Part shown: positions 55,702-56,398 of the stretch, in pieces | Layout of the letters: each line of letters opens with the position of its first letter | Numbering within the stretch: the first letter of the stretch is position 1 | Origin: Escherichia coli | GTDB taxonomy: Bacteria > Pseudomonadota > Gammaproteobacteria > Enterobacterales > Enterobacteriaceae | Length of the DNA stretch: 64,000 bases | Direction: 5' to 3' (one strand) | Assembly: GCF_036507355.1 (NCBI RefSeq) | Contig: NZ_AP027878.1 | The notes under the pieces: model-generated | The model's database searches: none | Seen by the model: the letters and a program-made list of their open reading frames with translations, nothing else | Told to the model about the DNA's origin: nothing | Position numbers and translations under genes: made by a program

Positions 55702-55809
55702 TTACTGTTTCCTGAGTGCTTCTATGACGCCAGCAATACCGCCTACAACTATGCCAGCAATGACAACGAGAACAATTGGATGCTTGTCAGCAAAATCCCA
55801 GAAGCCCAT
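55702..55809 (-). CDS. Small hydrophobic peptide (35 aa)
   Basis: MGFWDFADKHPIVLVVIAGIVVGGIAGVIEALRKQ; single TM helix; between TerB-like gene and tRNA-Ile. Confidence 0.3.
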   Translation of the reverse strand: MGFWDFADKHPIVLVVIAGIVVGGIAGVIEALRKQ

Positions 55810-55972
55810 CACTGATCCTTAGAAGCTGTTTTTAATATCGGCCATACCAATGTTACAGCTACTGCTACCAACGCCCCGTCGGATAAAACCGACAGGATTG
55901 TGCTGGTGAAATCCACCAGCACAGATAGCACGAGAAAAACCAAAGCCAGAATTAGACGTGCTTTTATAACCA

Positions 55973-56398
55973 TCAGATATACTGTTCCAGTGGTAATTGA
56001 AGAGCCTGGGCAATTTTCTTCAATTGCTCCTGCTCTTCTGCCCCAATGCCATCCTGGTCAGCAATATCAATGCATAGGCACAGAACATCTACCGCATCAT
56101 TAGTTCCAGACACGTCAGCCAGTTCACGTAAAGCCTGGGCATTCGCTCGGCGCGGCGAGGCTTCATATTGAGCGCGAATATTGGCGCTCATCTGGGCAAT
56201 TTCACCGGAGAACGGCGCAAAGGCAGGAAGTGCTGCAATGGTTTTTTCCAATACTGCAATTTCTTTCGCATCGCAGGTGCCGTCAGAGTATGCAATGGAA
56301 TATGCGCCCCAGACAGTCGCTTCCACCGCATCACGGTTTTCCATCTTCTTGACTCCGCCAGCCGCTTTGCGGAATTTCTTTTTGAGAATGCCGAGCAT
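55973..56398 (-). CDS. tciA: TerB-like protein (TciA-like, tellurite resistance family)
   Basis: 141 aa; two DG-containing TerB-type repeats (YSDGTCDAKEIAVLEK..., IADQDGIGAEEQEQLKK...), GAGG RBS. Confidence 0.6.
   Translation of the reverse strand: MLGILKKKFRKAAGGVKKMENRDAVEATVWGAYSIAYSDGTCDAKEIAVLEKTIAALPAFAPFSGEIAQMSANIRAQYEASPRRANAQALRELADVSGTNDAVDVLCLCIDIADQDGIGAEEQEQLKKIAQALQLPLEQYI

Follow-up and report, generated by a model that had tools for sequence, protein, structure and literature searches.

What does a TerB-like gene contribute to a replicative helicase operon that is held under repressor control, and what do the small reading frames behind it encode? The question is raised by a stretch of Escherichia coli DNA of 64,000 nucleotides (assembly GCF_036507355.1, contig NZ_AP027878.1; referred to below as the window), in which a preliminary description, made from the sequence, had noted a TerB-like gene with small hydrophobic ORFs after it, situated between tRNA genes and upstream of the helicase gene ban.

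Gene content of the tciABC locus

The region of about 2.1 kb around these genes is that of bacteriophage P1, with 99.9% identity over 2101 bp to the P1 GenBank records (AF234172, AF234173, NC_005856), from which the gene names and the annotation of the locus have been taken. The flagged interval is the annotated P1 tciA-tciB-tciC cluster on the minus strand, and the locus is thus already known; P1 carries the same three genes at the same locus and the same coordinates, with no difference. The order of the features in the P1 records (tRNA-Asn, tRNA-Thr, upl/plp, tciABC, trnI, ban) is also the order found here (Table 1). Both profile matches and annotation confirm the arrangement of a TerB-like gene and small hydrophobic ORFs, between tRNA genes and upstream of ban, that had been described. 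Both junctions, tciA/tciB and tciB/tciC, are TGATG stop/start overlaps, and Shine-Dalgarno sequences are present 5' of tciA (GAGG before the ATG) and 5' of tciC. On the opposite strand, upl and plp run antisense to the transcript of the ban operon over their whole length, with their predicted promoters inside the 5' end of tciA, and plp overlaps the tRNA-Thr gene by 30 nt (57130-57159).

Table 1. Features of the tciABC locus and its surroundings (positions are those of the window)
Feature	Position	Strand	Description and basis
tciA	55973-56398	-	141 aa, TerB family; Pfam, profile against 2JXU, P1 annotation
tciB	55809-55973	-	54 aa, DUF3927, predicted two-TM hairpin; PF13064, phrog_1470
tciC	55702-55809	-	35 aa, single TM; phrog_23152
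64-aa ORF (TTG start)	55819-56013	-	Spurious overlapping frame, not a gene
trnI, assigned to tRNA-Ile2 (anticodon CAT)	55623-55698	-	ARAGORN, Rfam tRNA, P1 annotation
ban	53972-55342	-	DnaB-type replicative helicase, downstream of tciABC in the same operon; ORF and annotation
tciA leader	56432-56551	-	Structured, sub-threshold likeness to STnc100; Rfam, fold z-score
tRNA-Thr and tRNA-Asn	57130-57283	-	Upstream of tciABC; ARAGORN, Rfam, annotation
dicF-like region	57739-57840	-	Between the ban promoter and tciABC; annotation
Oban (former Op72ab)	57938-57965	none	Bivalent C1 operator overlapping the ban promoter; consensus match and annotation
upl and plp	56590-57159	+	Two small genes outside the module; annotation, phrog_14500 for Upl

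The second gene differs from the one first described, which was a 64-aa Gly/Ser-rich ORF overlapping the 3' end of tciA. Such an ORF does exist mechanically, but the true gene, tciB, lies in another frame and had been overlooked. The product of tciB matches DUF3927 (PF13064) at E=7e-31 across the whole profile (positions 1-53 of 53) and also matches phrog_1470, whereas the 64-aa ORF has no family match in Pfam or phrog searches. Furthermore, between P1 and P7 the identity is 83% for the tciB frame and 64% for the 64-aa frame, the latter is interrupted by an in-frame stop in P7, and it is missing from the other homologous loci. The 64-aa protein was therefore rejected as the second gene, and a gene model in which TciA is followed by this protein and then by a 35-aa peptide is hardly credible. 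TciB itself is predicted to form a helical hairpin from two hydrophobic helices, both of which are conserved together with D21 and D32-G33. It is less constrained (dN/dS 0.14) than tciA, for which a dN/dS of 0.06-0.08 indicates strong purifying selection.

The 35-aa single-TM peptide of the preliminary description corresponds to TciC, which matches phrog_23152 at E=4e-27; a GTG three bases further upstream offers an alternative start and would give 36 aa. There are two intact TciC alleles, whose differences exchange one hydrophobic residue for another. TciC is restricted to the P1/P7/D6 lineage and is absent from the non-P1 loci examined. It is a real gene, with a divergent version in D6. In the D6 record (L014), this version is a 37-aa ORF without annotation (MMDFWTYIDKNPGWSLLFLLVIVYGVEQVAKNLRRRK) that shows the TciC pattern and lies directly before a tRNA, on the downstream side of the tciB-like gene.

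TciA as a TerB homologue

A profile search for TerB, the check that had been proposed for the first gene, identifies TciA as a genuine full-length TerB homologue. TciA scores 28.4 bits (E=2e-6) against Pfam TerB (PF05099), which passes the gathering cut-off of 24.4, and it matches phrog_632 over its full length at E=7e-62. In addition, a profile built from 98 TciA relatives matches the solved TerB of Klebsiella (2JXU_A) over residues 11-149, its full length, at E=2.1e-26. The relatives were collected by searching 1.8 billion representative proteins exhaustively; only 140 clusters were found at E<=0.001, and most of these are stand-alone proteins with a length of 140-150 aa. A PDB search with the single TciA sequence gave EF-hand matches instead, and these have been rejected as due to chance; the family profile was needed to reach 2JXU. 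A search of NCBIfam with TciA, TciB and TciC returned nothing useful.

In an AF2 model, TciA is a six-helix bundle (pLDDT 90) whose strongly basic N-terminus (net +6 in residues 1-20) is modelled with lower confidence. The best Foldseek match of this model is the TerB-like structure 2h5n (prob 1.0, TM 0.52), and 2JXU itself is not listed. TciA carries two DGxxxxxE (D-G-x5-E) motifs, G40/E46 and G117/E122, and these four residues, each at least 90% conserved, are the only ones that are nearly invariant in the family.

The TerB protein of the terZABCDE systems (Klebsiella TerB 2JXU; IncHI2 R478) resembles TciA in its full-length homology, its size, its all-helical structure and its two DGxxxxxE motifs. 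In contrast to terZABCDE, however, tciABC is without terC, terD, terE, terZ and terA and sits in a phage operon, and the partner of TciA is a 54-aa DUF3927 hairpin, whereas that of TerB is the multi-pass TerC. Given the TerB homology, and three cysteines (C42, C107 and C109) that are conserved in the close TciA subfamily, the cluster might be taken for a true tellurite-resistance determinant. However, these cysteines are not conserved across the wider family, and ter clusters give tellurite resistance only when terB is accompanied by terC, terD and terE; no other ter gene, these three included, is annotated in the 10 kb around tciA or was found in the other phage contexts examined. Furthermore, we know of no case in which TerB alone confers tellurite resistance. 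This reading is thus very improbable, and the term "stress-resistance module", which had been applied to the locus, is a name inherited from homology.

Control of the ban operon and its RNA elements

The module had also been placed under repressor control, and here the operator sequences and the annotation agree with the preliminary description. A C1 operator 17-mer that matches the consensus perfectly (57949-57965), with an inverted copy bearing 2 mismatches (57938-57954), lies 1.55 kb upstream of the module for the same transcribed strand and coincides with the annotated Oban. In the window as a whole, there are 15 matches to the C1 consensus with no more than 3 mismatches (for example, at 11999, 31974, 42321, 57949 and 61471), where 0.42 would be expected, and these operator-like sites would fit the dispersed C1 regulon of P1.

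The dicF-like region ends in a GC-rich hairpin with seven consecutive Ts behind it (GCCCATCTTCGGGTGGGCGTTTTTTT, at about 57750-57778), which was located by a terminator scan and separates the C1-controlled promoter of ban from the tRNAs, tciABC and ban itself. Since this terminator-like hairpin lies between Pban and tciA, the operon needs read-through or processing, and the need to pass such a site resembles the situation of dicF in the Qin dicB operon. Expression of tciABC from Pban rests on annotation and on such read-through. A simple promoter scan found no sigma-70 site in 55300-58100, but it also missed the annotated Pban and is therefore uninformative about internal promoters.

The presence of a dicF-like region in the same transcription unit has a further implication, namely that tciABC might act with the dicF-like RNA to inhibit cell division, arresting the host early in lytic growth. 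The gene name allows such a function, and the original annotation lists cell-division inhibition "by homology". However, most of the homologous loci are without dicF or dicB nearby, and no TerB or DUF3927 protein is, to our knowledge, known to act on the divisome. We regard a role in division as quite improbable.

Two other RNA elements flank the module. The tciA leader aligns with model positions 31-147 of 206 of STnc100 (RF02076) at 33.4 bits, which is below the gathering threshold of 47, and it folds somewhat better than shuffled sequence (z=-2.25). It is kept in relatives that carry an SPFH cassette instead of tciABC, and a 40-nt island in the leader region (56524-56563) is 95% conserved in P7 and D6, where the flanks differ. 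Nevertheless, it is not a general TerB leader, because it is not conserved 5' of the homologues in SSU5-like or Yersinia contexts. On the other side of the module, trnI begins 3 nt after the tciC stop and is followed by ban, as had been described. ARAGORN calls trnI Met(CAT), whereas it is named tRNA-Ile2 in the P1 record; it shares 89.5% identity with chromosomal genes for which the RefSeq annotation is tRNA-Ile in 5425 of the 5426 E. coli genomes. Judged by its sequence, trnI is a tRNA-Ile2 of the CAU, lysidine-dependent type, closest to ileX/ileY rather than to tRNA-Met. Intergenic DNA that carries no annotation in Stx2c and other Stx phages, in TL-2011b and in some 39-kb podophages shares about 81% identity with the non-coding spacer between trnI and ban (55440-55608); this spacer has no Rfam match and no excess of RNA structure (z=-0.11).

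Distribution, exchange and possible role of the module

A TerB gene in such an operon had been considered unusual. This label fails, because tciABC has been present in AF234172 for years and the pair of TerB and DUF3927 genes is common in temperate enterobacterial phages. TciA relatives with 72-100% identity are abundant in phages, phage-plasmids and prophages of Enterobacterales, and 378 IMG/VR contigs encode a relative, as found by a locus search with an 11-sequence alignment of closer relatives. In at least 78 of the best 80 viral loci, the stop codon of tciA overlaps the start of a DUF3927 ORF (GTGA or TGATG), and 38 distinct partner sequences occur among these 80 loci. The partner persists even with TciA homologues of about 33-35% identity, either overlapping the stop (L011) or lying one small ORF further downstream (L012). 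Given that the pairing is kept and that TciC is found only in the P1 lineage, the core unit is TerB plus DUF3927, and TciC is a lineage-specific addition.

The settings of this pair vary. Lambdoid prophages carry it between the gene for the Q antiterminator and those for holin and endolysin (L010, L077, L090). Same-strand tRNA genes are nearby in 35 of the 57 non-P1 loci, as Ile2-Arg-Arg, Thr-Gly or Arg, and the Ile2-Arg-Arg genes share about 90% identity with the tRNA block of Stx2 phages, in which stx2 follows these tRNAs. A bona fide STnc100 (79-106 bits) stands directly after the pair, downstream rather than upstream, in 4 of about 10 lambdoid loci scanned. Taken together, the position between Q and holin, the tRNA block and STnc100 indicate that the pair occupies the late-operon cargo slot that holds the stx genes in Stx phages. 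STnc100 has been reported 75 nt downstream of stx2 (PMC12370729), and in a 2026 preprint TerB is listed as one of the conserved genes in the neighbourhood of the prophage sRNAs PasA and PasC. The TerB plus DUF3927 pair is strongly conserved, is present in hundreds of temperate-phage contigs and resides in the Shiga-toxin cargo slot of lambdoid prophages; a defined phenotype would explain what two genes that are common in the prophages of pathogenic E. coli are for and could also illuminate the TerB domain in the Ter, Bunzi and Shango systems.

Compared with P1, the lambdoid and SSU5-like pairs have a TciA that is 82-88% identical, a coupled DUF3927 gene and, often, adjacent same-strand tRNA genes. 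However, they have no TciC and their TciB is only 41-61% identical, and the lambdoid pair differs further in its late-operon position, with STnc100 immediately downstream. In SSU5-like phage-plasmids, the pair is found among replication and nuclease genes, and in one Yersinia prophage it adjoins an S24 repressor gene and kil. The latter position means that expression in the lysogen is possible in some settings.

The place of the lambdoid pair, directly upstream of the holin/endolysin genes in the late operon, raises the possibility that the module times lysis. TciB, as a two-TM hairpin of about 50 aa, has about the size of a class II holin; it would then be a holin/antiholin-type membrane protein, regulated by TciA, that tunes the permeabilisation of the membrane. 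Such a function is not easily reconciled with the P1 module, which belongs to an early C1-controlled operon and has no lysis genes beside it in the annotated stretch (the P1 lysis genes lydA/B and lyz lie elsewhere in the genome), nor with the company of replication and nuclease genes in the SSU5-like elements. In addition, a Pfam search gave no match to a holin family. We therefore consider a role in lysis timing rather improbable.

The preliminary description had called the role of the module unclear, and no experimental function of TciA, TciB, TciC or any phage TerB plus DUF3927 pair turned up in the literature searched. CRISPRi of P1 gave EOP values of 0.65, 0.99 and 1.3 for tciA, tciB and tciC, respectively, all three being nonessential for plaque formation (PMC10695390), and a P1vir transcriptome preprint reports changes in tciA/B/C expression at 10 and 20 min of infection. 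Furthermore, TerB has been reported to be membrane-associated, and TerB domains are present in the validated defence systems Bunzi and Shango, for which "membrane surveillance" has been proposed.

The identities of the genes, their coupling, their conservation, their genomic contexts, their placement in lytic operons and their dispensability are shown by the data. To explain them, we tentatively favor a model in which tciABC is a dispensable, lytic-phase, inner-membrane TerB module that acts on the membrane of the cell producing the phage, by conditioning or protecting it. In this model, tciABC would be transcribed with the rest of the C1-repressed ban operon when the phage develops lytically; the lytic phase is suggested by the position of the module behind a C1 operator in P1 and between Q and holin in lambdoid prophages. 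TciB, and in P1 also TciC, would be small inner-membrane proteins made in step with TciA by translational coupling. TciA would be a cytoplasmic bundle with the TerB fold, kept on the cytoplasmic side of the inner membrane by its basic tail and its membrane partners, in a way comparable to the association of TerB with TerC in ter operons. Together, these proteins would then condition the membrane or protect it against superinfecting phage, pore-forming colicins or premature depolarisation. Both the docking and the protective role are drawn from TerB biology and from the genomic context. In this regard, ter clusters reportedly confer phage inhibition and colicin resistance (work attributed to Whelan et al. 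in 1995 and 1997). It should be noted that the cytoplasmic tails of TciB are only about 6 residues long and would thus offer little surface for the docking of TciA. An AlphaFold model of a fused TciA-linker-TciB, made with a paired 19-row alignment, was of low confidence (pLDDT 66.5, pTM 0.55, with 50-66 for the TciB part) and did not sharpen the N-terminus of TciA; it therefore speaks neither for nor against a direct contact of the two proteins.

Another hypothesis that places the module at the membrane is counter-defence, in which TciA, as a mimic or decoy of TerB or by stabilising the membrane, would weaken a membrane-sensing or membrane-damaging abortive infection of the host (Ter, Bunzi or Shango-like), and the module would work beside phage tRNAs that replace those cleaved by host nucleases. 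The TerB domains of Bunzi and Shango, the lytic-phase expression and the frequent linkage to tRNA genes are all compatible with this idea, as is the P1 tRNA-Thr, which has G39 where the E. coli target has U: its positions 36-41 read UAAGCA, compared with the UAAUCA reported for E. coli (U39G). Position 39 has been described as the site of a T5 escape mutation. The P1 tRNA-Asn reads UAAUCA, and that of the host UAAUCC. The P1 tRNA-Thr and tRNA-Asn may be anti-PARIS decoys. However, the linkage to tRNA genes may merely reflect a shared cargo slot, and none of TciA, TciB, TciC, Upl and Plp matches a PADLOC model at E<=1, including those for the TerB-containing Bunzi and Shango systems. Although the TerB domain is common to TciA and these systems, for which a role in membrane surveillance has been proposed, TciA has no helicase/ATPase partners and belongs to a phage element rather than to a host defence island. 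We consider counter-defence in this form unlikely. We are similarly doubtful of a broader proposal, in which the TerB plus DUF3927 pair is a widespread phage effector at the inner membrane during lytic growth, either blocking abortive infection or excluding rivals, and would constitute, with the linked tRNAs and the STnc100-type sRNA, a mobile "lytic-phase counter-defence island" located where lambdoid phages carry Shiga toxin genes. This proposal takes the P1 Thr-UGU and Asn-GUU tRNAs to be targets of PARIS/AriB.

The favored model of a membrane module describes tciABC as dispensable, and comparison among P1 relatives indicates that it is an accessory cassette. In relatives of the RCS47 type, a gene for an SPFH/Band_7 membrane protein replaces exactly 55708-56423, with trnI and the leader kept and homology with P1 resuming at 56424. 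Furthermore, tciABC is one of eight hypervariable regions and is missing from about half of the P1 subgroup-1 phage-plasmids (PMC9603915). The SPFH/Band_7 protein has 275 aa (RCS47, L013, 1926-2753), is also found in MH422554, vB_EcoM-813R1 and Ro157c2YLVW, and is labelled "serine protease" in some records.

Exchange within the cassette is seen in P7 (TerB/Upf69.4/Upf69.6) and D6, whose tciA/tciB-like genes occupy the same slot, with the same neighbouring tRNAs, as in P1. The TciB of P7 is 83% identical and its TciC 100% identical to those of P1, but the TerB protein of P7 and D6 comes from another allele and shares only 31% identity with P1 TciA (L002, 3173-3607; L014, 3046-3480). The junction of a divergent TerB gene with a near-identical 3' part of tciB and with tciC places the recombination breakpoint inside tciB, near 55943. 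The P7 allele has the stronger Pfam TerB score, 54 bits, and it weakly matches the TerB-like domain of DjlA and DUF533. In the D6 record, the neighbouring tRNAs are placed on the strand opposite to that of the Rfam calls.
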